Made by a program: the position numbers and the translations under genes
Notes under the pieces: generated by a model
What the model was told of the DNA's origin: nothing
Seen by the model: only the letters and a program-made list of their open reading frames with translations
Database searches by the model: none
Source: Schmidtea nova
Taxonomy: Eukaryota
Length of the DNA: 64,000 nt
Direction of reading: 5' to 3'
Assembly (NCBI GenBank): GCA_044892505.1
Contig: CM097883.1
Span: 256,060,001 to 256,124,000 of the forward strand
In this document: one piece after another, positions 19,649 through 37,873 of the stretch
How the letters are laid out: every line of letters starts with the position of its first letter
Numbering within the stretch: position 1 is the stretch's first letter

Positions 19649-19773
19649 TTTCTAAATTATATACATTAATCGTTTTCTCGATTTCTCTTTTTATATTTTT
19701 ATAATATCGATACCCATACTATTACGGTAATGCATTGTTATTTACACTATTATTTACAGTCATATCCCGCCTC

Positions 19774-22700
19774 CTATATCACCATCACTGTCTTTCCTTC
19801 GTATCGCTCTTCATCTTCTATTTGTCTCCAAAATTCTTTACCTTTCGTCCTCCTTTGGAATTCTTTCTGTACTTCTTCCGGTAATTCTATACTGTAGTTC
19901 ATAATCTTTATATCTGGCCAATGTGTTATTGGTTTCTTGTTGAATACATCATATATCCATATTATTAATAATACTGTTATTACTGGAATAGTTGCTGCTA
20001 GTATTCCTAGACCAAATAGTTCTCTAACTTGTTTGTTTACGTCCATCTTCGTAATTTCACTCTGGTTAATCATTGGTCCGTATTGTCCCTTTAGTTTAGT
20101 TAGTAGTTGTTCTCGTTCTTGTTGTTTTCTTTTAACTTCTTTAATTACTTCTTCCGGCGTCCATCTTGCGTAAGGGTCTATTACTACTTGTTCTGCGTCC
20201 ATTCGTTTCGTTGTCTGACTTAATTCTTTAAATTCGAGTTTTCTCACTTTCCCTTTGGACGTTGAGTTTACCGGTGTGTAGTACGTTTCGCATCTTTCCT
20301 GCTGATTTCCCAGTATGTCCGTCTTTTCTATCGCACATATCTCGTATTCGCTATTGAATTTCAGATTTCTGATACTTATTTCCTCTTTTCCTTTTACGTT
20401 TTCGCAGTATCGTGGCTGTCTTTCTTTTTGTTCCTGAACTACTGCCCAACATATTTCTAACGTTTTATTGTCTATTCTCCATAGTATAAGAGTTGCTGTA
20501 GTATTCTTTTCGGTTTTTATTTGTATTTCTTGGTTTTTCTGTTGTCCATTAGGTTTAAAAGTAGTGGTATACCTCGTTTTTCCTTTGTTCCGTTGTCTTC
20601 TGCTTTTTCGCGTTGTCTTTCCAATTCTTGTTCTGGTGGGTGTTTTATATATTTTGCATTCCAGTTCATTTACTGTTATTTTGTCGCTCTTCCTGATCAG
20701 GCATATTTCGTACGTTTGATTACTTTCTAACCCTTCTATCTGTATTGTGGTTGTTCCTCTGTTTGTTCGACATTGCGGCGGTGTATTCTGGTTTGTTTTC
20801 TTTTCCTGCTTCTTCCAGCATACGCCTTTGACGTCCGGTTCTATTCCGGTTAACTCTAACATTATAGTTGTTCTCCGTTTGGTGCGTTTATTTCTTCTTC
20901 CTCGTCGTATGAACTTTATTGTTTCCCCAGGTTGAAATGTTTTACAAATTGTCGTTCCTTTCTTGTGTCTTTCTTTTTCTAGTAAACATAGTTCATACGT
21001 CCTGTCTGCTTTTACTTCTGATATCTTGGTTACTTTATTTGTTTTCCTTTTCCGACTCGTCTTTATTTCGCTTACGCCAATTTCTTCGTTGCTTCTGGCC
21101 CAACACTTTGGGTTGGTGTTTTGGGTGTCGTTCATCTCTGTTACTGCCATTGTGTCAATGTCTATCCCTTCTTCTAACCGTTTTAACATTGTTAATATGA
21201 GTGCTAAACATAGTAATTCTGTTTGGTAGGTCACTCTTTCAGTTTCATTTGTGGTTACTCTTACTTCGGGCCTGTCTATGGTAATTTGTATAGTTGGCGT
21301 TGTTCGTCTGTCTATTGTCTGAGGTTTCTTGTTTTTTGTTCCTTGTGTCTCTGTTCTTCCACACTTTCCTACGACATAGTCTCCTTTGGATGACTGCTGT
21401 ACTGTTATGGTTACTTTGGGTGTTAGGTAATTTGCACATGCAATTGTCTTATGTGATCTCGGATCCTTTGGTTTCCGAACGGTGCACATTCTGTACCAAG
21501 TATCTAGCTCTAGGTCATCGATCTCTATGATTTCTTGTTCGTATTCTGAGATCCTGCAATCCATTGGACTATTTTGTCCCGAGATTTTGTCCTTTTTTGA
21601 CCAACATACTCGTTCGATTCCTTTTGCGTTTCCAATTTGTATTGTCGCTCTTTCTTCACATATCATTCCTTGAGTGGGACTAATTAAGGTCATGATTACC
21701 GTTAGTAATAATAGTTCTGGTTTAAAGAATGGGTTTATTGTTTGTTTGTAGCCTGTTCTTTTTACTTCGTTTTTATTTTTATAGTTGTTGTTTCTTTGTT
21801 TCCCAAATTCATTTTTCTTATCATTTTTCTCTGTGTCCCTTCCTTTCTCTTCACTGTCCTCTTTATCTGATAACTCATGATCCTCTGGATTTTCTCGAGT
21901 ACTATCGTCGTCGTTTCCTGTATTGTCGCCTCCCCTTTGGTCGTTGAAAATGTCGTCCTCGACATTAATTGCTTCTATCATTTTTTCATACGTTATGGTT
22001 GTGAGTATACTTGCTTCGTATTCTTGTGTTTCTGCCTGCTTAGGTATTTCCTTATCGGTTAATTTACAATCTAGAATCTCTTTCTTGGCTTTTATCCAAT
22101 TATTGAGGTACGTTTTCATTAGTTCTTTCCATTTGTCCGTACGTTCTGTTTCCTTTGGGTTGTTTGTGAATCGTAAATCTTTTCTTCTCATGAAGATGTC
22201 TATTATCTTTGGCCATTTGTTTATTATTAATGCACACTTTATATATAAATTCTGGCCTTGTTCCATGAACTCGTTGATCCTGAATGCTGGTTCATTGGTG
22301 TTTGGGTTCATCCAATTGAGTATTGCTTCGGTTAGTTCAGCGTTATGCATCATGAAATGTACGCTAGCTTTTTTAACCGTCCTTGTAAGATATTCTATTT
22401 CCTCCTGATTTGTGATTGTTTTTATAAAATTTATCACCTCCCAATTGTGCGCTAACAACGCTACGTCTAGTATTGAGCTGTCTTTGTTAGTTCTTCCCAT
22501 GAGTCCTGCACCTGCTTCGTACAGTTCCTGTAACACTCGGGTTTTTGTGTTCGCTCTTGCTGCGAATATCATGAGGGTATCTCCCTTTTTATCTTTCCTG
22601 TTCATGTCACTTCCGCAATCTTGCATCAACCGTGCAATTTCGACTACCCTCCTATCTTTTCCTGCTCGTAAGGCTCTATGTATTGGCAATACTCCATTCT

Positions 22701-25700
22701 TTGTTAATAAGAAAGTCACTGGCATTTCTCTTTTTATGATCATCATATCGTTTTCATTGTAAGTTCCTTCCGCATATGCGCGTACCTTTTCCACAATTGC
22801 TCCGAGTATCTCCAGTGTATGTTTAGAATTTTCGAATTCTGGTAATAGTTCTTTTGCTTTGTCCTGTATCGCATCTAACCTTTCTTGATATGGTACTTCT
22901 GCGCTGAAAAGTGGTGTAAATTTCCTTTTGCTTTCTCTTTCCTTTCGACATAGGAATTGTTTGCATTTTTCGGGGTGGTTTAATATGTCTATTAGTTTGT
23001 CATACTCCTCCTCCACCGTTTTGTATTTGTCTTGAAAATTGGATATATCTTTGTAAGTTATCGACTTGGTTAGCGATTTTGCACACCATTCCCTAATATT
23101 ACTGAATAATGCTTCTTTTTCACTTTCGAATTTATACTCCTCTTTGTTTTTGGAAATTGTGATATTTCTTCTGTCCAATACTATTAACAGTGTTTTCTGA
23201 TCACAAACTAATTTTAATAGGAATTGTAATAACGCGTTTTGTCCTTCACTGTATACCTCGTTTATATTTAATACCCATGTATCATTTTCGGATCTTTTCC
23301 ACTTTATTAGCTTGCGTATTGTTTTGCAGTTACCGATTTTTTTTGCCTCCTTGATTATATCACCTTTGATCAGTTCGTCTATTTCCCAAGTGGCCTTCTC
23401 GATTATTTGTTTGAGCATTATCTGATTTGAGCTCCATATTGCGTGATTCAAGACTGTTTTGTTTTCTCTATCGCGTTCCGTCCAGTTGAAATCGGCATTT
23501 ATCAAAAGGTCTATTATTGCTTTATCCGATTTGTAGATGGCTGCTACCATTAATGGTGTTTCTTGTTCGCTATTCCCAAAACCAAGGTGTTGGTTTGTTT
23601 CCTTAGCGATTTTTAGAAATTCTTTTACTCTCTCTACTTCTCCCCATTTTATGGCGTTATGTAATGCTGGTTGTCCTCCTATGTCTTCTAGTGAAAGTAT
23701 TTCTGGAATTTTTTCCAGTAGTTCTGAAATGACTGGTTTTGTTGGTAGTCCCCTTGCGTAATCACTAATTATCGACTGAATATCTCTTAATATATCGTCT
23801 CTGACATGCCATTTTCCCATTATTTCTCTGGCTTTTAGTACAATTTCCTTGTTTCTTTTTTCTTGTTGCTTGTTTTCTGCTTCGGTACTTTCATCGGTTG
23901 CTCTGAGCATATTTATCCTGGCTGTCTGGGATCTTGTTATTATTCGTTCTTCTGGCACTGTGGTTATTGTTTTTGGTACTTTCTTACATCTGCATGTATT
24001 AACGTATATTGGTCGTATCAATGGTCGATTAACAAGTTTTACCTTCACATTGTTTTCCTTTTTGTATATAACTTCGTAAGGGCCTTTTCCTGGTCGTTGT
24101 AGTTTTTTAACGGTTCCTGGTATTATTTCTGGGGTTTCTATCATTACCCAATCTCCGGGTTTAAGATCATTTGTTTTAACATTTTTCTTTTGATCGTGTA
24201 GGTCCTTGTAACTTTCTTGATAAAACTTTATGTTTAGTTCTGCTGTCTTCCATATCTCTTGCATTCGTTCTTTGAATTTGGTGACGTAATCATCTTCCTC
24301 CATATATTGAGACAAGGGTGGTTGATATTCAAGATCTATTGGCATATTGCATTCCCTTCCATACATTAATTGAAATGGACTCAATTTTGTTGCTGCGTGT
24401 ATCGACATTCGGTATGCCATTAGACATAGCTTTACGTATTCATCCCAATCTGTTTGGTGTTTGCTTACATAATTGGATAACATTCGAATCAATGTGCCGT
24501 TAAATCTTTCCGTTTGTCCGTTGGTTTGCGGATGATATGGTGACGTTCGTAATTTGGCTATTCTGAAGTAATTTGTCACTTCATCTAGTATTTCGCTCAT
24601 AAAATTTGTTCCTTGATCTGTTAGTATTTGTTTCGGGGTTCCGTATCGACAACATATTTCCTCTACTAAAATTCTTGCTACGGTCTTTGCTTTTTGATCC
24701 GGCATCGCAAATGCTTCAGGGAATTTAGTCAAATAATCCGTTATTACCAATATATATTGATTCCCGTTTAAACTTTCTGGCAATGGTCCTATTACATCCA
24801 TCGCAATGGTAGTCATTGGTTCCGCTGGTATTGGCATGGGTTTTAAAGGATTTTTCCATTTCTTCCCACTATCCTTTCTTGTGGCACAAGTTAAACAGTT
24901 CTTTATCCATTCCTTTACGTCTTCGTCCATTGTTGGCCAATAATATTTTTGTCTCATGCGATCTAATGTTTTCTTATTGGACATGTGTCCTCCCAACTTT
25001 CCGTCGTGGTATTGAGTTATTATCTCTTTTCGTCTATTACCTGGCAGACACATTAATCGTTTCTCTCCATCTCGTATTAATAACCATCCTTTTTCTATTG
25101 TGTATCGATGTTGGTATTTCCTCATGTGTTCTTTTAACTCCGCATTGTCTTTGAATACATCCATATTCCGTGAGCTTAGGAATTCTATGATGGGTCTTAG
25201 TTCTTTATCCTCTTGCTGATCTTTCTTCAACTCACTGAAATCCAAATCCTCTGCTATCATTATGCATATTCTTTGCACTTCTGGGTCTGTTAGTTCTGGA
25301 AACGTTAATCTTGACATGCAATCTGCGTTGGCATTCGCTTTTCCTGATTTGAATTTTATATCTGGTGAATATTCTTGTAATTGCATCGCCCATCTCATTA
25401 ATCTGCTGGATGTTTCCTTATGTTGTCCTAGCCATACAAGTGGTTGATGATCTGTGGTTATGCATATAACGTGTCCCCATAATAGATATTTAAAGTGTTT
25501 TATTGCTAATATTATTGCCAATGCTTCTCTTTCCGTTACTGAATAATTCTTCTCGTGTTTCTTGAATGTTCTGCTATAATATCCGATTACCCGCTCTTTT
25601 CCCTCGTCATCATATTGTCCTAACACTGCTCCTGCTGCATATCCACTTGCGTCGGTTGCGAGTAAAAATGGCTTCTTGAAATCCGGGTGAACCAATATTG

Positions 25701-25767
25701 GTGCAGTTATTAACTTATCTCGTAATGTTTCGAAGGCTGTTTGTTGTTCGCTTCCCCATATGAACAT
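19774..25767 (-). CDS. pol: Polyprotein 3' part: RT connection, RNase H, integrase, ankyrin modules, FN3-like ectodomain, TM
   Basis: ATDASGYAAGAVLGQ (RNase H). HDGKLGGH...CLTC, MDVIGP, TDQG, GQTERFN and GKGPY (integrase). Continues the upstream ORF after a 1-nt deletion. Confidence 0.95.
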   Translation of the reverse strand: MFIWGSEQQTAFETLRDKLITAPILVHPDFKKPFLLATDASGYAAGAVLGQYDDEGKERVIGYYSRTFKKHEKNYSVTEREALAIILAIKHFKYLLWGHVICITTDHQPLVWLGQHKETSSRLMRWAMQLQEYSPDIKFKSGKANANADCMSRLTFPELTDPEVQRICIMIAEDLDFSELKKDQQEDKELRPIIEFLSSRNMDVFKDNAELKEHMRKYQHRYTIEKGWLLIRDGEKRLMCLPGNRRKEIITQYHDGKLGGHMSNKKTLDRMRQKYYWPTMDEDVKEWIKNCLTCATRKDSGKKWKNPLKPMPIPAEPMTTIAMDVIGPLPESLNGNQYILVITDYLTKFPEAFAMPDQKAKTVARILVEEICCRYGTPKQILTDQGTNFMSEILDEVTNYFRIAKLRTSPYHPQTNGQTERFNGTLIRMLSNYVSKHQTDWDEYVKLCLMAYRMSIHAATKLSPFQLMYGRECNMPIDLEYQPPLSQYMEEDDYVTKFKERMQEIWKTAELNIKFYQESYKDLHDQKKNVKTNDLKPGDWVMIETPEIIPGTVKKLQRPGKGPYEVIYKKENNVKVKLVNRPLIRPIYVNTCRCKKVPKTITTVPEERIITRSQTARINMLRATDESTEAENKQQEKRNKEIVLKAREIMGKWHVRDDILRDIQSIISDYARGLPTKPVISELLEKIPEILSLEDIGGQPALHNAIKWGEVERVKEFLKIAKETNQHLGFGNSEQETPLMVAAIYKSDKAIIDLLINADFNWTERDRENKTVLNHAIWSSNQIMLKQIIEKATWEIDELIKGDIIKEAKKIGNCKTIRKLIKWKRSENDTWVLNINEVYSEGQNALLQFLLKLVCDQKTLLIVLDRRNITISKNKEEYKFESEKEALFSNIREWCAKSLTKSITYKDISNFQDKYKTVEEEYDKLIDILNHPEKCKQFLCRKERESKRKFTPLFSAEVPYQERLDAIQDKAKELLPEFENSKHTLEILGAIVEKVRAYAEGTYNENDMMIIKREMPVTFLLTKNGVLPIHRALRAGKDRRVVEIARLMQDCGSDMNRKDKKGDTLMIFAARANTKTRVLQELYEAGAGLMGRTNKDSSILDVALLAHNWEVINFIKTITNQEEIEYLTRTVKKASVHFMMHNAELTEAILNWMNPNTNEPAFRINEFMEQGQNLYIKCALIINKWPKIIDIFMRRKDLRFTNNPKETERTDKWKELMKTYLNNWIKAKKEILDCKLTDKEIPKQAETQEYEASILTTITYEKMIEAINVEDDIFNDQRGGDNTGNDDDSTRENPEDHELSDKEDSEEKGRDTEKNDKKNEFGKQRNNNYKNKNEVKRTGYKQTINPFFKPELLLLTVIMTLISPTQGMICEERATIQIGNAKGIERVCWSKKDKISGQNSPMDCRISEYEQEIIEIDDLELDTWYRMCTVRKPKDPRSHKTIACANYLTPKVTITVQQSSKGDYVVGKCGRTETQGTKNKKPQTIDRRTTPTIQITIDRPEVRVTTNETERVTYQTELLCLALILTMLKRLEEGIDIDTMAVTEMNDTQNTNPKCWARSNEEIGVSEIKTSRKRKTNKVTKISEVKADRTYELCLLEKERHKKGTTICKTFQPGETIKFIRRGRRNKRTKRRTTIMLELTGIEPDVKGVCWKKQEKKTNQNTPPQCRTNRGTTTIQIEGLESNQTYEICLIRKSDKITVNELECKIYKTPTRTRIGKTTRKSRRQRNKGKTRYTTTFKPNGQQKNQEIQIKTEKNTTATLILWRIDNKTLEICWAVVQEQKERQPRYCENVKGKEEISIRNLKFNSEYEICAIEKTDILGNQQERCETYYTPVNSTSKGKVRKLEFKELSQTTKRMDAEQVVIDPYARWTPEEVIKEVKRKQQEREQLLTKLKGQYGPMINQSEITKMDVNKQVRELFGLGILAATIPVITVLLIIWIYDVFNKKPITHWPDIKIMNYSIELPEEVQKEFQRRTKGKEFWRQIEDEERYEGKTVMVI
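19950..21720 (-). other. C-terminal membrane-protein module of the polyprotein: signal peptide, 4 FN3-like repeats, polybasic sites, TM
   Basis: PELLLLTVIMTLISPTQG|MICEE. Repeats share C-W...(I)xxL...Y-x-[IML]-C...C-x-x-[YF]-x-[TP]-P. RNKRTKRR at ~20872-20907. Sequons NET, NDT, NQT, NTT, NST, NQS. TM LFGLGILAATIPVITVLLIIWI. Confidence 0.65.
22420..23680 (-). other. Two ankyrin-repeat modules (~3 repeats each) after integrase
   Basis: GQPALHNAI, QETPLMVAA, ENKTVLNHAI (~23400-23680); GVLPIHRAL, KGDTLMIFAA, KDSSILDVAL (~22420-22705). Confidence 0.85.
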
Positions 25768-28700
25768 ACGTCTTTCTTTACTAGCTCCTGGATTGGTTTT
25801 GCAATTCCTGCGTAATCCTTTATGAATTTTCTATAGTAACCGCATAATCCGAGAAATTCTTGGATCTGCGTTATCGTCTTTGGTACTGGACATTCTTTTA
25901 CTTTATCAATGTTTCTGGGATCTGGTTCCTTTCCTTTTGCGGACACAATATGTCCTAAGAATGTCACTTTCTCTTTTGCCCAATCGCATTTCGATGGTTT
26001 GAGCTTGAGTTTCCATTGTCTCAATCTCACAAATACATCTCTGATATCTTGGATGTGTTGTTCAAATGTGCTTGAGTAGATTAGTAGGTCATCAATGTAA
26101 ACCATGCATTGTTTTATGCCGTGGGTGACAAAATTCATACATCTTTGAAATGATGCTGGTGCATTGGTTAGTCCAAATGGCATTTTCCTAAATTGGTACA
26201 AGTCTCTTCCGATAGTGAAAGCAGTTTTCTCTTTGTCTTCCTCTTTCATTTTAATTTGCCAGTATCCGCTTTTCAAATCCAATGATGTAAAATATGCCGC
26301 TCCTTGTAATGTCAATAACATCTCGTTGATGTCTGGTAATGGGTATGTATCCCTTTTTGTTACCGCATTTAATCTCCGATAATCAATACAAAACCGTTGT
26401 GTTCCGTCTTTCTTTTTCACCATTACAACTGGGAATTGCCACGGTGAGCAGCTTGGTTCAATTACTTCTGCGTCTAGCATTTTCTGTACTTCTGCTTCTG
26501 CTACTGATTTTTGCGCTTCAGCTAACTTGTATGGTCTTAACGCAATAGGCGTTTTGTCTGTTAGTGGAATCGTATGTAGTGTGACGTCGCATGTCCCTAG
26601 ATCTAAATCGGATGCTGCGAATATGTCTTTATATTCCATCAGTAACCTTTCTAGCTGTTTCTTTTGATCCTCATTTAGTAGTTGGCTATCAATGTTCCAG
26701 GTGGGTTCCTCCTCTTTTACTCCTTCTTTTATTGGTATTTCGATATCTATCATTGGAGTTAGTTTACCTAGTCTTTCATTTTCATAAATTATTTTATCCT
26801 CTTCATCGAAATTTACTACATTTATTGGGATTTCTCCGTTGTCATTCGCACTCACTAATCCCCTTGCCATTGGCAACGACTTTCTCTTTTCAAATCTTTT
26901 ACTGGGTTCAAAAATCATGTCACCTTCTATTGTAGGGTCTATTTTTACGAAGCATATTTTCTCTCTCCGTGCTGGTACGATTATTTGTTTCGAACTTGTT
27001 ACTTTTGCTTCTATTGCGCATATCTGTCCTGTCCTGTCCTTTAGTCTCATTGTTCCGAGATCAATAACTATTTCTTTAAATAATGCTGGCATTAAATCTG
27101 TGCCTATAATGCATGGTACGCTTAGTGCTGGTATTACTGCTACGTACGTTTCGATTTCCGTGTTTTGATGTTTTATCTTTACCCACCATCTTCCGGCAAC
27201 TTCTACTACTTCTTTACTGCATGCTATTACGTGAACGTTGGTTCTCTCGATATCCCGTCTTTGTTCTTGTGGTATCCATTTTATATCTATTGCTGAGATA
27301 TTTGCTCCTGTATCAATCATCGCTTCTATTTCCCTTCCGTTAATTTCGATTGTTGTAGTTAATACCGGACCGGTGTTTGATGACATTACTGCAATTGTAT
27401 GTGAGTCTCCTTGCGGATCTACGCTTCTGCACCGTCTCGTTCTATAGTCTTCTGGTATCATAGGATATATGTTTGTCATCGGCATCATTTGCATTGTATT
27501 TTGTCTCATCCCTGGTGTTGGTTCTTGGTACATGGTTGGTGGGGGTGCGTAACACTTCCACATTTCCGCTGGATTCTTTTCGACATACTGTGGTACTTGA
27601 TTTTTAAATACTTGACCTCCTTCGTTATCATCATCATCGTCGTCACTGGAATCGTCTTGGGTTCTGTACCCTTTCATTCTTTCCCATAGTCCTTTTCTCT
27701 CTTTCTTTAGTTGTTGTCTTGCTTGCTCGTTATTCATTATCTTTTTAAATTTTCGTCCCACCTCTTCATCGGTTCCTTTCATTTTTGCCAGTATTTTTAG
27801 GAGTCTCTTTATTCGGTGAATATCTTTTGAATGACCGTGTAATACCATTGTTTTAGCCAAAAATGGTAAGAATCCTACCACCAATTTCCAATTTACTTTC
27901 TTTTCTCTTTTATAGATGTCAAAACAGGCTAACATTTGCGTTATTATTACCCGTATTATTTGTATAATTAGTATAACACCAAGTATTCCTGCCATCATTT
28001 GTCCAAATATTAAAAATCTTCCCCACATCGCTTTCATCATGTTTTCCGTTGCCTTCTTAAAGTGGGCTGGTGACAATAATAATTCGTAATTTGGTCCACC
28101 TTGGTAATTTGTTCCTCCTGTTATTGTTACAATGCTGGATAACACCGCTTCCATTCTTGCTGGAAATAGTATGTTTTGTCTTGCTGCTTCTAAGTCTTTT
28201 GCGCTATAGAATCCCATATTACTTACATCTACGTCTTTAAATTTTCGTCCTTTTGATAGTTGCATCAATTCAAATTCCCTTGGTGCTGGTACCTCTGTTC
28301 TTGACGGAAACATAACCCAATTCCCGTCTGGTTTTTGGTATAGTGGTCCATATGCGTTGCTGCAATTGAAAGGATTTGGTTCGAAGCTTATTGGATTTAT
28401 GATTCTTGTCACTGGTTGCACATATCTTACTTTCCCTTTATATTCGATTTCTAGTTCGTTAGTACACTGACCTGGTTGTAATTTTGTCATTGTCGCTACC
28501 TTCGCGTTTGTCTTTTTACATATGTATACATACATGACCTCTCCGACTACCCTTCCAAAATGACCTTCTCTCAATGGTAATAATGGCATTGCACTATCAG
28601 GGTTTGTGATTGCTACCGCTAGTTTTGTCTTTAATATTTCCCTATTTAATATGCAATCGTTGTTAATTAAATCGTAATACACTTTTTGTAGTGACGCTTG

Positions 28701-31700
28701 TCCTCTATGGAACAGAAAATCCATTTTATTGTTCATGTAAAGGTGTAATTTAACATCGTTCGTGTGCACTTTGCGTTTCGCACTAGGTACTTCTTGTTTT
28801 GATACAAAAATGCCGGGGTAGTTGGTTTCCAACATAGCTACTCCGCATTTCAAGGCTGTTTTTCCTTTTACAAACCTCATTCCGATATCTGCATCTGAGG
28901 TAATTAGTACCGTTGGTGTATTTCTCATTTTAATTTGTTTTTCTTGTGTTCGGGTTTCAATCTTTTTCTCTCCTCGTACTGTGTCTTGAAGTATTTTTCC
29001 TCTTGCTACCTCGTCTTCTTCTTCCTCTTGGAAGGTTTTCCCTTGTATCTCATCGAATTCTGCTTCCTTTAACAGTTGTAGTTGACATTCCTTTCCTCGT
29101 ATCTGGTAGGTTAAGGTTGACATACCGGTTTGGCAAGTGTTTGACTCGATTTTGCACATGGGCAGGGTTTTCATTTCTCCCGTTGTTGGATCGAAGAATG
29201 CCTCGTACGTTTTTAATTCTACTGTATAGGTATCTATTACCACTAGGTTTGTTGCTGCTACTCCGAATATTGGATATGTTGCTCCTTGGCAGTACCCTTC
29301 TCCTCCCGTAATAGCTCCTGCTACATAATAAGTTTGTTGCAATATCACTCCCGTTTTTCCTCTTATCTTTACTCTATCTCTAGTCTCTACTTCTCCATGT
29401 TTAAATAATTTTTCGCAGTCTTCTCCTTGCAGCATTACCGATTCTCTTTCCGTTCCTGGCATCACGATTGCTGAATAATGGCGGTGTCCACAATAAAAAG
29501 CAAATCTGGTTTTATAAACTTTGCATTCCCTGACCATTGTTCTTATCAGTTCAGCTTCCTGATATACGTGGTATAATTGTCTCTTTTTTAATGTTTTTAA
29601 CTCCGTTGGGGTTGCGTCCTTACATTGTTCTGTCCCTCGTAGTGAATATTTCTCACCTAATGCCATTTGATCGCAATCGAATACTTCAAATGCTGTTGCG
29701 CCGTCAGTACTAATCATCCATATTAACATCATCATAATAATGGAACTCAAGTTTAGTGACGATTTCCCGTTTCCTGTTCCCGACTTTTCCTTTTCCAATT
29801 CTCCCAATATCTCTTCGAATTTCCTTTTCATATTTTTGGCTTGGTTTTTCTTTTGGTTCGTTTTTGTGAATGTCTCCCATCCTCCTTTACTGATGATGTA
29901 CGGTTCTATTTCCTTCTCTATAATTTTGGCTGTATTCTTTATATGTCTTTCAAGTGCTGTGGGTTTCAGTCGACCTCTACTCAGTGTCAGCAGATTGTAA
30001 ATGGTGTATGCCATAGCTATTAAATATTTGTTATCCGTCTCTGCTCCTTCCGTTAACTTCTTTATCAACATCGTGGTTCCTTGCCAATCTAGGTGGTTTG
30101 ACCTTGTCTTCTCTTTTATTAATTCTGGTAGGATTGGTGCGATGGCGCTATGCAGTGATTTCGCCCTTTCGCTTATTTCGTTTATTCTCCACCATTTCTT
30201 TAATTCCGGATCGATTATTGCCAGTATTTCTATTAACATCTTTGATATCCATTCTTCGCCTTGGTATGTTTGTGTTGTTTCTTTTTCTTTCGTTTCGGCT
30301 ATTTTATTTAGTTTCTTTAGACACAAATCCCATTGATCCCGTCTTTTTTCCTCTCTTGATTTTATCACTACATTTGCTGGATCTATCTTGGGTCTACCTC
30401 TAGGTCGTTTATCCATTGTCGTGCCCATTTCTACTAATCTTGTTTCTCGTCCAGTTTCTTCTGTGACGTCTCTTGGTTCATTGGCTCTTTCTTCTAACCA
30501 TCTTTCCATTTCTTGTGTGAATTGTACATTTTCTACATTTGCCCTCCTTGCTTCCTCTTCTGCTATTTCATTTACTTCTTCGATGATTATTTCTTGTTCA
30601 ACTTCATCTTCGGTGTTGGTTACCGGTATTGCTGTTGGTAATTCTTGAATTCTTTCGAAAATATTATCATCTTTCTCTTTTGTTAGCTCTATTAACTCCT
30701 CTAACATATCATCGCTATCTGTAAAAATTTCGTCTACATCGTATGGTTCTGGTGGTGTTCTTTCTCTTGTCTCTCTTGGTGTTGTTCTAGCTTGTTCTGA
30801 GCTTGTTCCTGGAGTCATTACCGATTTCATTGGGCTCGGCGTACTCATACTTCCTTTTGGTTTCTTTTCCTCTTTCAATTTTAATGGTTGGCCTGCTATT
30901 GCTGCCACTGTCAATGTATTTGCGATATCTAATTGCGCTGGCGTTATTCCAATTTCTAAGCTGTTATCTAATGATCGTCCTTGGTGTTGTAAATGGAATG
31001 GTGGTTCATATCTCAATTTCTTTTTAATGTCTCGAACTTTCTCCGCTATCCCTACCCAAAACTCTTCTTTTTCCTGGTTCGGATATACTATTCTTAGGTG
31101 TACTTTCTGTGGCGATTCCTGCGAGAATTCCTGGTTTCTCCATTTTTTAATTACGTGATCCAATTGTTCTGGACACCACTCGTTAACTCTTTTGTATTCG
31201 GCGATTGCTTTTGCTACTTTACGCAAGCATGTTATGTCTTCTCCATTAACTACGAAAAAATCTGCTAGACCTTTTACTACTTTTCTCTTGCCGTGCGCAT
31301 TGGTTTTTAATATTTCGACAAATTCCTCTGTTTTTTGTTTCTCTCTTTCCAACCACATGGTTGCCGTTTCTGGTCCGTCTAAATCTGCTGGCATGGCTTT
31401 TCTTGTTACCATACAAACCCTTCCCGTTTCCGGTTTGTGATCGTCTTCTATGCCTATTTCGTATTCCTCTTCGTATTCGCCTGCTTTTGGTTCCCAACAT
31501 TTTCCTCGTTCGTTCCATTGTTTTTCTACAGGTGTTCGTAATCGTCTGTTGAGATTGAGTTCTTCTAATACATCTTCCCATTCTGGCCAAATCCGCCAAT
31601 TTCGATAAATGTCTACTATTTGTTGTAATTTATGCACAACTTCTTTTTGTCGTTCCCGTTCTCTTTTCTCATCCTTAGCAGTTTCTCTTGGTTTATCGTC

Positions 31701-34700
31701 CATTCTGATAACGTGGATGGTTTGGTGATTATCCCATATACCAATTTTATATAGCCGTCTTTCATCGTGATCCCATAATACATGTTCGTTGTATTTCATG
31801 ATTATGTCATCTTCCCATTCTTCTTCTGGTTCTCTTTGTAATAGTGTCTCGTTGATGACATTTACTAATTCTTTTATGGTACAATCTGCTACCACTTCAA
31901 TTTCTTTGGTATCCTCATTAGGTAACTCTACTGCAATTTTCAGATCTGTTATTTTCCCTTGTCTGAACATTGCTTTTCCCATTTTGGCAATTACTTTTCC
32001 GTATGAGATCTGTGACCATCTCGTGTGACTTGTGTCACGTATGCACTCGATACATCGTTTTAACTTTTCGTATTCGCTTCTCATTAACTCCTTTCTATGT
32101 TTTTTGATTTGTGGGATGATTTGTTCTATCATGGAATTTAGATTTCCTCGTAAGATTCGTCCTTTCTCATATTCTAACCGTGGTTTTATCTTCTTCTCGA
32201 AACACATATTTGCTTCCTTTGCTACTTCTTGTAGGTTCTCTTCCCTCTTATCATCGCATATCGATAATGTCGTCACCTCTCCTGGCCATATGCCTGTTTC
32301 TATCAAATGCGTCCTTTTCTTCACTAGTCCATTCTGTGAATAGAGGAATTTGTTTTTATATGAACTCCCTAATCTATCTTCTACCCATTGATAAATATCT
32401 TCCGTGAGTGGAGTTTTGACCCAAATCCTTGGCAAACATGTTTTTATCTCTATTAGGATTATATATTCATGGAGTGGTTCTTTTAATAATTTTCCTACGT
32501 ATTGGCTTAGTGTTTCTACTTCCCTGCCTGGTAACCACTCTTTATAGTTCATTTGTAATATCGCTCTCATGAATTTTCTATAGTGTTTCTTGTCAATGAA
32601 TTCCTCATTATATATTACTTCTAGCGTATTATCTAATAATTTCTGGATCTCGTCTTCTTTTACTTGAATAGTTCCTGGTGTCTTTACTACTTCTATCTTT
32701 TTGTCTTCAATTTCTGGTTCGTTTAGCATGTCCCCTGCTAGACTACTGACGTCACTATCCTCTTCGTCGTCTGAAAAATTCCTTGCCTGGCCTCTCAACA
32801 TGTTAATGTGTTTTATTTGGTTGATTTCCCTTGGTGTATTTTCCGTGGGTCTTGTTTCACTTTTAATAGCTTTTTGTGTTGATTCACTCTTGTCGTCTAC
32901 TACCTCGACCTTTCTCATTTTTCGTTCTAACTCGTCTATTTCTTCCAGCCGTCTTCGTATCATTTTCCCTTTAAATATTCGACTGATTCGTGTTTCGTGA
33001 CGCACTGGCGATGGAATTCCTTCTGGTTCTATTTCCTTGATTACCATCACATTTCTTTTTGTCTCTACTACTCCCATGTTTTCCCATGTATCCGTTAGTT
33101 TCAATTTTACTTCTGGTGCACCTTCTATTTTTAGGAATACTTCTCTGGGCAGTTTCGTTACTCCTGGAGCCATTTCATTCACTTTATTGAACAATATTTC
33201 TACTTCTTCCTTTATGTTATATTGGAATCGAAACACGTGCTTGTTTGGCAATATTACCATCATTCCTCTTTTCCCGAGTTTCCTTTTCTCTTCTTGGTTC
33301 CTTTCTTTTTCTACTTCCTTTTCTGTTTCTTTTTCTGCTTCTTCATCTTCTTGTATTATCTCTTTTCGGCCTTCGTTGTTGGTTGGATTCGGGTTTGTTA
33401 GATTTATTTCTGGAACAGTCTCTTTCTCGTGGGTATTTGTTTGATTGGTTGCTCTCATCATATTAATTCTTAGAGGTTGTCGTTCTCTTTCTTGCTGTTT
33501 TTGTTCCTCTTCTCTTTGTATTCTTGCCCATTCCTGAGCATGTCGTGCTTGGCTTTCTCGATTCAATCGTTCGTTTTCGCTTTCTATTTTTCTCATCATA
33601 TTGATTTGTTGTTGACCTGTTTGCGGATTTCCTCTGGTTGTATTGTTTATCAGCTCCGTCAATCTTTGAACCTCTTGCATTAAATGTATCTCTTTAGTGG
33701 TATTTTTATTTTGGTTATTATTATTACTATTTGGTTGGTTTCCGTATTCCGGTTGGTTTCCATTATTTGGCTGATTCCCATAATTCTGTCGGTTTCCACC
33801 AGTTGGTTGGTTTCCATAGTTTTGTCGGTTTCCGGTATTCTGCCAGTTTCCTCGTTGATTGCTTCTTTGTCCGCAATTTCTTGATAGGTGTCCAGGCCGT
33901 CCACAATTAAAACAGGTTATTGTGTAACATCTGCTCTCTGAATGCCCTTTTACTCCACATTTTCCACAATTCAAGTTCTGATAACATTCTTGTTGCCAAT
34001 GTCCCAATTTCCCACATGTTTTACATTGTTTCGTTGGTCCTTGGGGGTTGTAATTGCTTTGATTTCCGAAATTTGATACTTTATTCCCTTCATTCCTTCG
34101 TTGCGGTGGTGGTCGGTTTAATTGTTGTGAATTTGGAATGTGGTTATTCAGGTTCACTTCTTGTTCGTTTTGTGCTGTATCCATAGCTAAATAGATTCTA
34201 CCATCATTTCCTATCATGTGTAGTTCAAATCTATTAGCTGTTTCTAATGCTTGGTCAATAGTTTTACACCCTTGACATCCAACTTGCGCTCTTATGTCGG
34301 GTCTTCTTAATCCTCCCACAAAGATAGCTGCCATTAACTCTTCATTTATTGGACTGTCTTGATTGAAAATCAACTTTGCCAACTTTTTTAATTCGCTTGC
34401 ATATACCGCATTTGATTCATTTATCTTTTGTTTCCTCATTGAGAATTCCGTGAATGCCTCATTCAATACTTTGTTTATTCCGAAGGTTTGTTGGAAAAAG
34501 TCCTTTATCGCTGACCAACTTGTAGGTGGATTAATTCCATTTTTTGCTTCCAAATATAGATCTAATGCGCTATCTTTTAAATATAGCTGAATTCTGCTTA
34601 CAGTTGTTTCTGGTTTCCACTTGCATACTTCCACGAATATGCCAAATTCCTTTAAGAAAGTTTCTAATTTACTCGCATCTCCATTAAACGGTTCTCCGGA

Positions 34701-35162
34701 AAATTTGTCTTTTATCTCTTCTCTTGGTTCACTCATTTCGATTCCGCTGTCTGTAGTTATTTTACTTTCGTTTCCTCTTGTTTCTAGTTCACTGTTAGGT
34801 TCGTCACTCGAATTTCGGTCGATCTCAGTTTCTTTTGCTGATTCGTTATCTGATGCTTTACTATCGTTATCGGTATCGTCACTTTCTGTTTCTTGTTCTA
34901 CTTCGTCTTCTATTTCTTCTATATAATCGTTGTTGGTTTTGTCGACTTCTATTTCACTTATTGGGTTTCTCTCGGGTTCTGCTTGATTTTCTTTGTTGCT
35001 TGAACTGTTGCTTGTTACTGATAATTTATCGTTTTCGATAATCGACTTTTGTATTATTATCTGCCTTGCTTTACTTCCTTTTAGGCCTTTCTGATTATTA
35101 TTCTTGGTAGCTTTATTCTTTTCTGCTGGTTTTATTATGACACTCTTTTCTCCTTTTCTCAA
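25710..35162 (-). CDS. gag-pol: Polyprotein 5' part (3,150 aa): Gag, UBL x4, AT-hook, Bcl-2-like, fusion glycoprotein, protease, RT
   Basis: Uninterrupted 9.45-kb ORF with PFNGD capsid-like region, three CCHC knuckles, DTG protease and RT (FCIDYRRLN, DLKSGYWQ, MPFGL, YIDD). Track start is TTG; first ATG is at 34736. Confidence 0.95.
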   Translation of the reverse strand: MRKGEKSVIIKPAEKNKATKNNNQKGLKGSKARQIIIQKSIIENDKLSVTSNSSSNKENQAEPERNPISEIEVDKTNNDYIEEIEDEVEQETESDDTDNDSKASDNESAKETEIDRNSSDEPNSELETRGNESKITTDSGIEMSEPREEIKDKFSGEPFNGDASKLETFLKEFGIFVEVCKWKPETTVSRIQLYLKDSALDLYLEAKNGINPPTSWSAIKDFFQQTFGINKVLNEAFTEFSMRKQKINESNAVYASELKKLAKLIFNQDSPINEELMAAIFVGGLRRPDIRAQVGCQGCKTIDQALETANRFELHMIGNDGRIYLAMDTAQNEQEVNLNNHIPNSQQLNRPPPQRRNEGNKVSNFGNQSNYNPQGPTKQCKTCGKLGHWQQECYQNLNCGKCGVKGHSESRCYTITCFNCGRPGHLSRNCGQRSNQRGNWQNTGNRQNYGNQPTGGNRQNYGNQPNNGNQPEYGNQPNSNNNNQNKNTTKEIHLMQEVQRLTELINNTTRGNPQTGQQQINMMRKIESENERLNRESQARHAQEWARIQREEEQKQQERERQPLRINMMRATNQTNTHEKETVPEINLTNPNPTNNEGRKEIIQEDEEAEKETEKEVEKERNQEEKRKLGKRGMMVILPNKHVFRFQYNIKEEVEILFNKVNEMAPGVTKLPREVFLKIEGAPEVKLKLTDTWENMGVVETKRNVMVIKEIEPEGIPSPVRHETRISRIFKGKMIRRRLEEIDELERKMRKVEVVDDKSESTQKAIKSETRPTENTPREINQIKHINMLRGQARNFSDDEEDSDVSSLAGDMLNEPEIEDKKIEVVKTPGTIQVKEDEIQKLLDNTLEVIYNEEFIDKKHYRKFMRAILQMNYKEWLPGREVETLSQYVGKLLKEPLHEYIILIEIKTCLPRIWVKTPLTEDIYQWVEDRLGSSYKNKFLYSQNGLVKKRTHLIETGIWPGEVTTLSICDDKREENLQEVAKEANMCFEKKIKPRLEYEKGRILRGNLNSMIEQIIPQIKKHRKELMRSEYEKLKRCIECIRDTSHTRWSQISYGKVIAKMGKAMFRQGKITDLKIAVELPNEDTKEIEVVADCTIKELVNVINETLLQREPEEEWEDDIIMKYNEHVLWDHDERRLYKIGIWDNHQTIHVIRMDDKPRETAKDEKRERERQKEVVHKLQQIVDIYRNWRIWPEWEDVLEELNLNRRLRTPVEKQWNERGKCWEPKAGEYEEEYEIGIEDDHKPETGRVCMVTRKAMPADLDGPETATMWLEREKQKTEEFVEILKTNAHGKRKVVKGLADFFVVNGEDITCLRKVAKAIAEYKRVNEWCPEQLDHVIKKWRNQEFSQESPQKVHLRIVYPNQEKEEFWVGIAEKVRDIKKKLRYEPPFHLQHQGRSLDNSLEIGITPAQLDIANTLTVAAIAGQPLKLKEEKKPKGSMSTPSPMKSVMTPGTSSEQARTTPRETRERTPPEPYDVDEIFTDSDDMLEELIELTKEKDDNIFERIQELPTAIPVTNTEDEVEQEIIIEEVNEIAEEEARRANVENVQFTQEMERWLEERANEPRDVTEETGRETRLVEMGTTMDKRPRGRPKIDPANVVIKSREEKRRDQWDLCLKKLNKIAETKEKETTQTYQGEEWISKMLIEILAIIDPELKKWWRINEISERAKSLHSAIAPILPELIKEKTRSNHLDWQGTTMLIKKLTEGAETDNKYLIAMAYTIYNLLTLSRGRLKPTALERHIKNTAKIIEKEIEPYIISKGGWETFTKTNQKKNQAKNMKRKFEEILGELEKEKSGTGNGKSSLNLSSIIMMMLIWMISTDGATAFEVFDCDQMALGEKYSLRGTEQCKDATPTELKTLKKRQLYHVYQEAELIRTMVRECKVYKTRFAFYCGHRHYSAIVMPGTERESVMLQGEDCEKLFKHGEVETRDRVKIRGKTGVILQQTYYVAGAITGGEGYCQGATYPIFGVAATNLVVIDTYTVELKTYEAFFDPTTGEMKTLPMCKIESNTCQTGMSTLTYQIRGKECQLQLLKEAEFDEIQGKTFQEEEEDEVARGKILQDTVRGEKKIETRTQEKQIKMRNTPTVLITSDADIGMRFVKGKTALKCGVAMLETNYPGIFVSKQEVPSAKRKVHTNDVKLHLYMNNKMDFLFHRGQASLQKVYYDLINNDCILNREILKTKLAVAITNPDSAMPLLPLREGHFGRVVGEVMYVYICKKTNAKVATMTKLQPGQCTNELEIEYKGKVRYVQPVTRIINPISFEPNPFNCSNAYGPLYQKPDGNWVMFPSRTEVPAPREFELMQLSKGRKFKDVDVSNMGFYSAKDLEAARQNILFPARMEAVLSSIVTITGGTNYQGGPNYELLLSPAHFKKATENMMKAMWGRFLIFGQMMAGILGVILIIQIIRVIITQMLACFDIYKREKKVNWKLVVGFLPFLAKTMVLHGHSKDIHRIKRLLKILAKMKGTDEEVGRKFKKIMNNEQARQQLKKERKGLWERMKGYRTQDDSSDDDDDDNEGGQVFKNQVPQYVEKNPAEMWKCYAPPPTMYQEPTPGMRQNTMQMMPMTNIYPMIPEDYRTRRCRSVDPQGDSHTIAVMSSNTGPVLTTTIEINGREIEAMIDTGANISAIDIKWIPQEQRRDIERTNVHVIACSKEVVEVAGRWWVKIKHQNTEIETYVAVIPALSVPCIIGTDLMPALFKEIVIDLGTMRLKDRTGQICAIEAKVTSSKQIIVPARREKICFVKIDPTIEGDMIFEPSKRFEKRKSLPMARGLVSANDNGEIPINVVNFDEEDKIIYENERLGKLTPMIDIEIPIKEGVKEEEPTWNIDSQLLNEDQKKQLERLLMEYKDIFAASDLDLGTCDVTLHTIPLTDKTPIALRPYKLAEAQKSVAEAEVQKMLDAEVIEPSCSPWQFPVVMVKKKDGTQRFCIDYRRLNAVTKRDTYPLPDINEMLLTLQGAAYFTSLDLKSGYWQIKMKEEDKEKTAFTIGRDLYQFRKMPFGLTNAPASFQRCMNFVTHGIKQCMVYIDDLLIYSSTFEQHIQDIRDVFVRLRQWKLKLKPSKCDWAKEKVTFLGHIVSAKGKEPDPRNIDKVKECPVPKTITQIQEFLGLCGYYRKFIKDYAGIAKPIQELVKKDVCSYGEANNKQPSKHYEIS
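25800..26560 (-). other. Reverse transcriptase core
   Basis: SPWQFPVVMVKKKDG, LDLKSGYWQ, MPFGLTNAPASFQR; YIDD at 26088-26099. Confidence 0.97.
27050..27370 (-). other. Retropepsin aspartic protease
   Basis: AMIDTGANIS (DTG at 27306-27314) and IIGTDLM. Confidence 0.95.
27835..29750 (-). other. env: Envelope-like fusion glycoprotein, chuvirus G / class III-like, in frame between Gag and protease
   Basis: Signal SSIIMMMLIWMISTDGATA|FEVFDC. Cys pattern ECKVYKTRFAFYCGHRHYSAIV, GYCQGATY, KCGVAMLETNYPGIFV, YMNNKMDFL, DCILNREIL, VVGEVMYVYIC, CTNEL, PVTRII, CSNAYGPLY. TM GRFLIFGQMMAGILGVILIIQII. Confidence 0.85.
29865..30340 (-). other. Bcl-2-like domain
   Basis: All-helical ~160 aa ending in BH2-like IEPYIISKGGWETF. 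Divergent BH1-like DNKYLIAMAYTIYNLL. A hydrophobic anchor follows ~35 aa later. Confidence 0.65.
30387..30410 (-). other. AT-hook motif KRPRGRPK
   Basis: Exact HMGA-type AT-hook consensus, in frame (aa 1585-1592). Confidence 0.75.
30898..33270 (-). other. Four ubiquitin-like (beta-grasp) domains with helical spacers
   Basis: ~33030-33270, 32250-32465, 31700-31947 (IAVELPNEDTKEIEVVADCTIKELVNVI...IMKYNEHVL...LYKIGI...TIHV) and 30898-31106 (LQHQGRSLDNS). No C-terminal GG. Confidence 0.7.
33872..34710 (-). other. gag: Gag capsid-like domain and three CCHC zinc knuckles
   Basis: EPFNGDASKLETFL...LYLKDSALDLY; CKTCGKLGHWQQEC, CGKCGVKGHSESRC, CFNCGRPGHLSRNC. Confidence 0.92.
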
Positions 35163-35716
35163 CGGGATTACTTTTGTATACTCAATTTTCCTGTCTTATC
35201 GTGTTCCGATTCTTTTCTTCCTTGGTTGCTTGGTTTGGTTTGATTGATTTATCTAAAATACAAATGTCACTTCAACGATACTCTATTGTTATCGTTGCGC
35301 TTTTATTCTCTTTTTACGGGACTTCTCATTGCTGGGTTTCTATTATTTTTCCCCATTCCCAGATTCCCCTTTATTTAAGTCTATTTAAATTATCTATATA
35401 CTAGTCACAATTATCTATTTAGTCATAACAATTATCTATCGGTTATTCAAATACATCAATTATTTTTCCCGCGGTCTCCCAATTTATTTGTCGTTCGAAC
35501 GCTCTAATTCCCTGAGTCATTTGACTCGATTATTATTTTATCATCTCTTTATCTTTCTCTCTGCTAGCCTCTAATTATTAATTCTGCCGGTCTTTCCGGT
35601 CAGCTCCTATTTCTCAATTCTACTTGCATGCATTATTTTAGGTCGCATAATCAGCTTTACTCGCATTTCTCAATTCCTGGTGCGCACTATTCTCATTATC
35701 GTCGACGATCACAACT

Positions 35717-35930
35717 CTGGGCCTATATTCCCTCTGTTGTTATTTCTTATCACTTGCAACCCTGGGCCTATATTCCCTCCGTTGCTACTCAAACGATTGT
35801 AACCCTGGGCTTATATTCCCTCCGTTACTATCTTCCTTTAATTTTAAATAATTGCAACCCTGGGCCTATATTCCCTCCGTTGCTACTCAACAATTGTAAC
35901 CCTGGGCCTATATTCCCTCCGTTACTATAT
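35717..35930. repeat. Leader array 1: five copies of a ~27-nt core
   Basis: CTGGGCCTATATTCCCTCCGTT(G/A)CTA-like cores start at 35717, 35762, 35805, 35860 and 35902. Confidence 0.85.
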
Positions 35931-35968
35931 ATCCGGATATCCCTATTGGCTCCTTTGGCCTCTAATTA

Positions 35969-36136
35969 ATATCAATTATCTCAAATGGCTCTTATGGCCT
36001 CAAATTCATATCTCAATTATCTCAAATGGCTCTATTGGCCTTAAATTCATATCTCAATTATCTCAAATGGCTCTATTGGCCTTAAATCATATCTCAATTA
36101 TCTCAAATGGCTCTATTGGCCTTAAATCGTATCTCT
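35969..36136. repeat. Leader array 2: four ~41-bp tandem units
   Basis: ATATCTCAATTATCTCAAATGGCTCTATTGGCCTTAAAT(T)C repeated. Confidence 0.9.
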
Positions 36137-36179
36137 CAATAACGCCTAGCTAGGTCATTCAATATGGCTCTTTGGCCTC

Positions 36180-36579
36180 AACCCTTTGTTTCAAGGGACA
36201 AACCGCTGATAACCCTTTGTTTCAAGGGACAAATTCTAATAACCCTTTGTTTCAAGGGACAAACCGCTGATAACCCTTTGTTTCAAGGGACAAATTCTAA
36301 TAACCCTTTGTTTCAAGGGACAAACCGCTGATAACCCTTTGTTTCAAGGGACAAATTCTAATAACCCTTTGTTTCAAGGGACAAACCGCTGATAACCCTT
36401 TGTTTCAAGGGACAAATTCTAATAACCCTTTGTTTCAAGGGACAAACCGCTGATAACCCTTTGTTTCAAGGGACAAATTCTAATAACCCTTTGTTTCAAG
36501 GGACAAACCGCTGATAACCCTTTGTTTCAAGGGACAAATTCTAATAACCCTTTGTTTCAAGGGACAAACCGCTGATAAC
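36180..36579. repeat. Leader array 3: perfect 61-bp (31+30) higher-order repeat, 13 monomers
   Basis: AACCCTTTGTTTCAAGGGACAA followed alternately by ACCGCTGAT (7x) and ATTCTAAT (6x). Confidence 0.97.
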
Positions 36580-37053
36580 TTTTCCTTAACCGGTTAATCG
36601 TAATTCTTAACTTCGCTAGCGACTACAATTTCTCAGCTGAGTTCTCTCAATTTCATGCGAGCTGATTATGCACCTCTTATTTTTCTCTATAATTCCTCGA
36701 TTCTTTGTTTTATTACTAATTCTTTCGCTGATCAGTTCTACTTCAATTTTTATTATTTTCTCTGCGCGCATCTTACCTCATCATGGTTTTCCCTATTTCT
36801 CTACCCAACCAAAATATACAAAAAGATCGCGTTGGTCTACTAATGCGGGATGTGGTGATCAATCACATCACAAAAGCTTTCCAACATTTGCGATTGGCCC
36901 CTTTCTATATACCCCGAGTGGGTTGATCAACTGGTACCTCCCAATGGGTGCTTAACGGACTACTTGACAGTAGCTCAAAAATTAATTAACATTGTTGATT
37001 GCTCCCCTGACTTTGTCATTCGATACAATACATTAACACACTCTAAATATTTA

Positions 37054-37515: not shown

Positions 37516-37561
37516 TTCCTAGATAATTTATTTAATTACTGTGTTAATATTATTCGAAAAG

Positions 37562-37631
37562 TAGTACTGTGTTTCGTTTCTGACAGTTTTATAGCCTAGT
37601 ACTGTGTTTCGTTTCTGACAGTTTTATAGCC
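37562..37631 (-). promoter_or_regulatory. Duplicated 35-bp unit containing TATAAAA upstream of the RING gene
   Basis: Minus strand GGCTATAAAACTGTCAGAAACGAAACACAGTACTA x2, ~45 nt before the ATG. Promoter role inferred. Confidence 0.4.
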
Positions 37632-37855: not shown

Positions 37856-37873
37856 ATCCCGGCTGAGCCCCCA
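37856..37873 (-). other. Primer-binding site, tRNA-Pro type
   Basis: TGGGGGCTCAGCCGGGAT, 16/18 identical to the classical tRNA-Pro PBS TGGGGGCTCGTCCGGGAT; 6 nt from the LTR end. Confidence 0.88.

Follow-up and report, generated by a model that had tools for sequence, protein, structure and literature searches.

The region analysed here (hereafter the window) is a stretch of 64,000 nucleotides from Schmidtea nova (NCBI GenBank assembly GCA_044892505.1, contig CM097883.1, positions 256,060,001 to 256,124,000 of the forward strand). It contains a 28.8 kb long terminal repeat (LTR) retrotransposon on the minus strand (12436..41226) which, typed by its architecture, is a giant Ty3/gypsy element of the Burro type, and whose polyprotein carries the word I-N-M-[M/L]-R four times. 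The element is delimited by its LTR pair and by a 4-bp target-site duplication, TGAA, at both flanks. Alignment of the LTRs places the 5′ LTR, which has TG...CA ends and a G-rich tract resembling a primer-binding site (PBS) next inside it, at 37880..41226 and the 3′ LTR at 12436..15782, with 99.91% identity over 3,349 nt (3 differences). Because the LTRs are so similar, have TG...CA ends and are flanked by the duplicated TGAA, the insertion is judged recent.

Two long open reading frames (ORFs), both on the minus strand, make up the coding core. ORF1 (25710..35195; 3,161 codons from stop to stop, with the first Met at codon 154) reads, in order, Gag capsid (CA), three CCHC zinc knuckles, a helical spacer, ubiquitin-like (UBL) units, a Bcl-2-like unit, Env, protease, a dUTPase-like domain and reverse transcriptase (RT). 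ORF2 (19774..25830; 2,018 codons) continues with RNase H, integrase (IN), ankyrin repeats (Ank_2, E 2e-13), a signal-like segment, a beta-rich lumenal region and a transmembrane (TM) segment. A single change of reading frame separates ORF1 from ORF2, near 25,770 in the RT/RNase H connection, and the remainder is open. Since relatives are continuous at this connection, this copy is either broken or mis-assembled near 25,770; a programmed frameshift was rejected, as the relatives read through in one frame there.

The protease on which our interpretation depends is a retropepsin (27018..27389, minus strand; Pfam RVP, E 3.7e-8) with a predicted mature length of 124 aa. It lies in the same polyprotein as the four words and its active-site D-T-G-A (27306-27314) is intact. 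Env (27846..29699, minus strand) is a Monjiviricetes-type fusion glycoprotein (PF24664, E 2.6e-68) that sits in the ORF1 frame between Gag and protease, with a TM segment near ORF1 residues 2393-2425. Gag matches Retrotrans_gag at E 1e-4, just under its cut-off, and zf-CCHC, and the three knuckles are visible in the sequence.

A recurrent word in the polyprotein

All four words lie on the minus strand, at the coordinates given in the initial annotation of this DNA (a vertical bar marks the predicted cut). The first, QIN|MMR (33591..33608; pentapeptide 33591-33605 in QINMMRK, P2 at ORF1 residue 531), lies between two helical spacers after the nucleocapsid (NC) tail. The second, RIN|MMR (33453..33470; pentapeptide 33453-33467 in RINMMRAT, P2 at ORF1 residue 577), precedes UBL-like unit 1, and the third, HIN|MLR (32793..32810; pentapeptide 32793-32807 in HINMLRG, P2 at ORF1 residue 797), follows it. 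The fourth, RIN|MLR (23902..23919; pentapeptide 23902-23916 in RINMLRAT, P2 at ORF2 residue 639), stands at the end of integrase, before the ankyrins. No other copy of INM[ML]R occurs in any of the window's six frames. The first copy had been placed after Gag NC; it is in fact about 90 residues beyond the last zinc knuckle, and the related string EIHLMQ is nearer. Two copies do lie before and after the unit that had been called UBL1, although the UBL label itself, having no Pfam match, is weakly supported.

The proposed enrichment relative to shuffled sequence was borne out: the polyprotein has four copies, where 2,000 shuffles averaged 0.004 and never gave more than 1, and none of 5,000 local 30-residue shuffles reached two copies. 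The log10 p of INM.R is -6.85, and the best gapped 5-mer in 200 local shuffles had a 5th percentile of -6.18 and a minimum of -8.45; corrected for choosing the motif after seeing it, p is roughly 0.005-0.05, because INM.R beats the 5th percentile and not the minimum. The only gapped 5-mer in the polyprotein more surprising than INM.R is a tandem N.GNQ repeat. Across the four copies, Ile is encoded by ATC, ATT, ATT and ATA, Asn by AAT or AAC and Leu by TTG or CTC, and the 20-residue flanks have 0-4 residues in common. The sole DNA likeness between copies extends over 31 nt (81%, E 0.42). Because the codons differ and the flanks are unrelated, the word has been kept at the protein level and not copied as DNA. 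It had also been claimed that each copy lies in a linker. The flanks are indeed very hydrophilic (hydropathy percentiles 3, 1, 4 and 11), whereas the three ORF1 copies are helical in a low-confidence structural model.

The word can be compared with the sites of the Ty1 protease, VPTIN*NVHTS, IHLIA*AVKAV and TARAH*NVSTS in the passages of PMC6952103 that describe them. The rule given there calls for hydrophobic residues at P2 and P2′, chiefly Val or Ile, and for hydrophilic ones at P1, P1′, P3 and P3′; foamy virus sites, in turn, have been likened to yeast Ty sites (as outlined in PMC3185560). By this description, I-N|M-M/L-R conforms to the Ty1 rule at P2 (Ile), P2′ (hydrophobic) and P1 (polar). 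The likeness is closest for TIN*NV, which parallels IN|MM, and includes hydrophilic P3 and P3′ residues. It is limited, on the same description, in that the three Ty1 sites are dissimilar whereas the four words here are nearly identical, with Met at P1′; furthermore, Ty1 is a copia element without cargo.

Junction sequences in relatives

An RNase H-integrase-ankyrin query returned 150 proteins and a second search listed 120. In a quick integrase tree of the best 70 of 234 rows, the element grouped with 18 others (SH-aLRT 91), and this 19-row set was used throughout; an inner clade of 15 rows had an SH-aLRT of 88. Among the 18 relatives, three carry Env in frame before the protease and one carries ankyrins. 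Profile scores in junction segments were compared with those in same-size segments of the same proteins by Fisher tests. A profile built from six non-canonical sites of the element was enriched at the protease N-termini of clade relatives (n=11, p 2.7e-4), where the best matches fall 25-33 residues upstream of the catalytic Asp (the distance in this element being 27), as well as at their RNase H/IN linkers (n=11, p 5e-3). Similarly, a profile of the five ORF1 sites was enriched after integrase (n=14 of 18, p 9e-3). The post-integrase segments were anchored on a basic motif, an anchor chosen after inspection, and four of the 18 rows were dropped (two without an integrase C-terminal end and two without the anchor). 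Without the six rows that were sisters or partial, the combined p was 3e-5, and the true column order was the best of 24 permutations of the profile. Other gypsy matches gave weaker signals, with p 0.03 for 119 RNase H/IN segments and p 0.13 for 15 protease segments.

In addition, 16 of 22 obligatory-junction segments of the relatives contain a 4-mer that obeys the Ty1 rule, compared with 18-20% of random segments. A profile derived from the relatives' junctions alone, applied to the 5,173 4-mers of the polyprotein, ranks VCMV first, INMM second and third, ICAI seventh, IAVM eighth and INML twelfth and thirteenth; the individual words rank 2 (RINMMR), 3 (QINMMR), 12 (RINMLR) and 13 (HINMLR). 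Restricted to unique 4-mers among those that obey the rule, this ranking has a p of 0.007.

Looser forms of the word were found at the junctions of relatives: VFMM (in the closest relative), ISML, VSMV, VGMM and INLI after integrase, and ICAL, VSML, VAAM and MNML between RNase H and integrase. INMI (P0017) and VCML (P0015) precede extra protease domains, each being the top-scoring 4-mer of its protein. Such extra retropepsin domains, in which D-[ST]-G is intact and the N-terminus often has a good site, recur in Burro-like relatives: P0014 has three retropepsins in all, P0015 and P0017 two each, and P0005 and P0029 have one directly after integrase. A second protease follows integrase immediately in four relatives, three of which have a good N-terminal site. 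In P0005, P0029 and P0014, the post-integrase site is the N-terminal site of the extra protease, and the order in P0005 is IN-site-protease-ankyrins. The Burro section of PMC6431247, the part of that review relevant here, makes no mention of extra retropepsin domains.

Two further layouts deserve separate record. In two other elements, P0041 (residues 215-425) and P0019 (residues 25-130), a coiled coil beyond NC is surrounded by V/I-N-x-x words (VNAM, VNTL and VNLL; INSY), an arrangement that echoes the post-NC layout of this element; P0041 has a different kind of insert before the protease. Furthermore, [YF]-x-L-R-[SNP] occurs in 10 of 16 relatives after the integrase C-terminal domain, directly before the predicted cut, and ITRSQ (23926-23940) occupies that place in this element instead. 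The relatives' motif resembles the nucleosome anchor of foamy Gag, reported as Y537-x-L539-R540 in the relevant part of PMC9040877, and by this analogy it could be a chromatin tether of integrase.

Other candidate sites and domain labels

Five related strings, each found at the place given for it in the initial annotation, may also be sites (all on the minus strand; ranks are those of the relatives-only model over 5,173 4-mers). RVC|MVT (31404..31421) lies between cargo blocks and ranks 1, with flank hydropathy at the 17th percentile. TIA|VMS (27381..27398) lies at the protease N-terminus, ranks 8 and has its P2 27 residues before the catalytic Asp; QIC|AIE (27009..27026) lies at the protease C-terminus and ranks 7. 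Cuts at these two would give a protease of 124 residues with the catalytic Asp at position 26, close to the catalytic Asp25 of HIV protease. RIC|IMI (25255..25272), at the RNase H/integrase junction, ranks 31, and the same class is found at this junction in relatives. EIH|LMQ (33675..33692), after the NC tail, is a weak candidate (rank 120; leave-one-out rank 43). The loose matches IHVI, VAAI, ICLI and a second ICAI were rejected as sites because they lie in predicted strands or lumenal regions. Over the polyprotein, the relatives-only model found no candidate site between the dUTPase-like domain and RT. Ty3 Gag is cut at CA/NC, according to the processing scheme in PMC6525542, and a CA/NC site was absent from the original list, so the map is incomplete in both places.

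Several labels of the cargo units remain weakly supported in this element, namely UBL, Bcl-2 and dUTPase. UBL-like unit 1 (33021..33263, minus strand) has no Pfam match. Atlas leads for it reached 0.79-0.80, with recognition under threshold; a single-sequence AlphaFold model (pLDDT 38) has a beta-beta-alpha-beta-beta-beta-beta pattern; and the best VIA Z was 3.3, in a list where several beta-grasp chains stood among unrelated ones. No Foldseek match reached E<=0.001 and no VIA-align match Z>=5. The matches to Ubiquitin_4 (one of four segments, E 0.034), Bcl-2 (E 0.13) and dUTPase (E 0.21) are all below threshold, but lie at the published Burro positions. Sequence searches of the PDB for the UBL-like and Bcl-2-like units, and an Atlas search for the Bcl-2-like unit, returned nothing useful.

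Accessory and neighbouring features

Two accessory ORFs on the minus strand accompany the polyprotein. One (17818..19227) is a separate ORF that encodes TRAF zinc fingers and a MATH domain (MATH_2, E 7e-21) and has no INM sites; the other (37057..37518) encodes a C3HC4 RING finger (PF13920, E 1.4e-11) upstream of gag. No BIR domain was matched in the ORFs scanned, a set that left out some small ORFs. Small coiled-coil-rich ORFs lie downstream of pol (15989-17728 and 19295-19651), one with a hydrophobic segment; the one that was scanned had no Pfam match. The C-terminal part of ORF2 (19777-21660) resembles a surface protein, with a signal-like segment, about three Cys-containing beta-rich repeats, a TM segment and a tail; it had no Pfam match, and similar tails are present in relatives. 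Upstream of gag, in the part of the 5′ leader that follows the RING ORF, are tandem arrays (35695-36667) with units of about 45, 41 and 61 bp. Just inside the 5′ LTR, the PBS-like tract TGGGGGCTCAGCCGGGAT (37839-37879) is, by its resemblance, a candidate tRNA-Pro primer site. Flanking the element are a DUF4371 ORF (2115-3752), a DDE_3 transposase (48500-49534), a long inverted-repeat element with gaps (50159-52420) and a weak GIY-YIG match (61030-61878).

Discussion

We consider it quite probable, on sequence evidence, that the four INM words are recognition sites of the element's own retropepsin, with a predicted cut I-N|M-M/L. The initial annotation had made the same proposal, and it is strengthened here by the fit to the Ty1 rule, the retention of the word at the protein level, the enrichment of similar sequences at obligatory junctions of relatives, the intact protease of plausible mature size and a predicted cytosolic position for all nine sites; it is weakened by the absence of the exact word from relatives. 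Lack of conservation among relatives had been named as one ground for refuting the proposal. Strictly taken, the pentapeptide fails this test; looser forms are present at the junctions of relatives.

Several observations weigh against this interpretation. INM[ML]R is found in none of the 18 clade proteins (44-60% integrase identity, which makes this a weak test), and an I/V-led word of this type recurs within none of the nine long relatives. Searches for homologs of the Gag-NC-UBL region found none (residues 150-900 against proteins of 1,738-5,532 aa and residues 154-880 against proteins of 399-1,273 aa, shorter fragments lying outside both searches), and because no relative of this region was found, the comparison with relatives covers one of the four words, the one after integrase. 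The single-sequence AlphaFold model, which is of low confidence (mean pLDDT 38.6), draws each of the three ORF1 copies as part of a helix. All four words have Met at P1′, whereas in the Ty1 account this position is hydrophilic on average, though one Ty1 site has Ala.

The junction statistics have weak points of their own. Unanchored, fixed segments of 60 residues after integrase showed no enrichment (p 0.41, n=15), and a strict profile of the four words, too narrow for the relatives, gave p values of 0.034 at RNase H/IN, 0.27 after integrase and 0.15 at protease N-termini. Because four permuted models came within 70-fold of the true order, part of the signal is no more than a patch of Met-rich, hydrophobic sequence. 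The 13 best-ranked of the 5,173 4-mers also include six from folded or lumenal parts. A blind motif from 109 general gypsy RNase H/IN linkers (V/I-A/S-A-L/V) was weak, scoring 649 against 597-626 in shuffles, and left the INM sites outside its top 45; an earlier run had locked onto the first integrase helix. Finally, the Ty1-type rule and the anchor were set after the sequences had been seen, and the relatives are not independent of one another.

An alternative that we regard as unlikely is that the word is a structural or binding motif that is never cut. It might open an amphipathic helix or a coiled coil, for example, or be a short linear motif to which a protein of the host or the element binds. 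A motif of this sort would account for the helices at all three ORF1 copies, two of which stand beside long E/Q/R-rich helices, and for a word more uniform than the element's own obligatory junctions (a model built from those three junctions ranks INMM 49 and INML 302). However, the helices come from the low-confidence model already mentioned, the downstream flanks of the copies are unrelated, and relatives are enriched for the same class of 4-mer 25-33 residues upstream of the catalytic Asp, a place that has to be cut. Less probable again, and in our judgement improbable outright, is that short internal duplications or template switches produced the copies incidentally and that they have no function of their own. 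Two copies do have RINM[ML]RAT in common, with 25 of 31 nt alike, and the element contains other short repeats, for example YGNQP. However, the DNA match (E 0.42) is what the shared protein word alone would produce, synonymous positions differ and the 20-residue flanks are unrelated; copying followed by selection on the word is conceivable, but the word would then be functional.

Marginally less credible than duplication is cleavage of the same sites by a host protease in place of the element's retropepsin. For two of its boundaries the polyprotein already appears to depend on host signal peptidase, and its cargo resembles regulators of apoptosis and ubiquitin. However, the word matches the retrotransposon-protease rule. 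Caspase sites carry Asp at P1 and furin sites are dibasic, and the word has neither pattern. Chance recurrence in a compositionally biased polyprotein is very hard to believe and already largely refuted. The motif was admittedly chosen after being seen, and some local shuffles contain a gapped 5-mer that is as surprising (minimum -8.45 against -6.85), but the failure of every local shuffle to reach two copies, a look-elsewhere p below 0.05 and the independent ranking by the relatives' junctions all speak against it.

On the retropepsin reading, RVCMVT, TIAVMS, QICAIE and RICIMI would be sites as well, cut between P1 and P1′ (P2-P1|P1′-P2′) in the manner of Ty1 and foamy virus, and a map of the polyprotein can be drawn in which the cleavage itself, the exact bond, the topology and the order of cuts are all things that we infer. 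Hydrophobic segments occur before Env (ORF1 ~1812), after Env (~2393) and at the end of ORF2 (~1937), and a further signal-like stretch near ORF2 residues 1375-1390 was seen by eye, under the threshold of our script. Env and the C-terminal lumenal block each start after a signal-like hydrophobic segment, and the one before Env (29700..29762, minus strand) is a likely point of cleavage by host signal peptidase, which would open both Env and the last lumenal block. With Gag, cargo, Env, Pol and further cargo placed in one frame that has signal-like and TM segments in its interior, both halves, that of Gag and that of Pol, would be tethered to a membrane, and all nine sites would face the cytosol. 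The viral protease would then free itself, RT-RNase H and integrase at the usual junctions. The strong words, three of which lie between NC and the first cargo units and one at the end of integrase, would cut Gag loose from the UBL/Bcl-2 cargo and separate integrase from the membrane-bound ankyrin/TM block.

Among the predicted products, Gag would be about 351 aa long, the two spacers 28 and 46 aa, three blocks 220, 463 and 571 aa, the protease 124 aa, integrase 451 aa and the ankyrin block about 750 aa. The earlier idea that each cargo domain is released as a mature protein is an overstatement on this map, in which no listed site parts the later UBL-like units, the Bcl-2-like unit or the ankyrin groups; the cargo would come off in blocks of several domains (220, 463, 571 and about 750 residues) and not as single domains. 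A better reading of the strongest sites is that they free Gag and integrase from cargo anchored in the membrane.

How this arrangement evolved is a matter on which we can offer only a tentative proposal, one that we think may well be wrong. The Burro-type retropepsin could have narrowed its specificity to a near-fixed word, which then served as a portable tag, with strong copies wherever core proteins must leave membrane-anchored cargo. Some tags would have come with duplicated protease modules, the IN-RINMLRAT-ankyrin junction would be the leftover of a lost protease, and the quality of the match would set the order of maturation. The sequences that bear on that junction are few, and they suggest that it may be the remnant of a lost post-integrase protease. 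If true, this proposal would explain how a single Gag-cargo-Env-Pol-cargo frame can exist and keep growing.

The closest published systems are the Burro/GYPSM1 gypsy-like elements of planarians, as presented in the relevant section of PMC6431247. In common with the element described here, they have an internal region of more than 20 kb with a polyprotein of about 5,000 codons, the order PR-RT-RH-IN, a Gag with CCHC knuckles (two or three published, three here), Ubi/SUMO-like and BCL2-like units after Gag and a dUTPase-like domain between protease and RT (sub-threshold matches here), a mononegavirus-like Env in frame in the order Gag-Env-protease, and ankyrins after integrase. A Burro-type element of Dugesia tigrina likewise has MATH/TRAF in an accessory ORF. 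In contrast, the TRAF ORF is downstream here and upstream in the published elements, and this element has a RING ORF in place of the BIR domain, which was missing from the ORFs scanned, and a frame break in this copy. That section names no protease cleavage sites.

Foamy viruses and Ty3 also encode a retropepsin that cuts Gag and Pol at domain junctions (PMC3185560, PMC6669543, PMC5371799, PMC6525542, in their accounts of processing), but they have few cuts and no cargo domains; this comparison is with descriptions of processing and not with site sequences. Similarly, the errantiviruses with a gB-type Env combine gypsy pol with a fusion glycoprotein in invertebrates, but in the text of PMC13524379 the terms 'ankyrin', 'giant' and 'planarian' never occur and the three mentions of cleavage are furin sites in Env. 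Our literature search found no account of cleavage sites in Burro-type polyproteins; its coverage stopped short of the original Burro description, supplements and Repbase, the last two of which might carry such annotation.

Self-processing at junctions by a retrotransposon protease is already textbook, so that the surprise is moderate and lies in the uniformity of the word and in the duplicated proteases of relatives; the uniform word, the map of cargo junctions and the tethering logic appear to be undescribed. The process is familiar, the sites are unusually uniform and easy to test, and the map is new. Burro-type polyproteins, of about 5,000 residues, have so far been described by domain content only, and a review of these elements calls their biology worthy of experimental confirmation (PMC6431247, in its Burro section). 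By the predicted map, the products would be Gag and integrase in free form, a UBL-like unit, larger blocks with UBL and Bcl-2 units, and an ankyrin block anchored in the membrane. The map also makes a very large element that is hard to study accessible to a cheap peptide assay. Furthermore, it touches on the general question of how retroelements gain in-frame cargo without crippling Gag and Pol.

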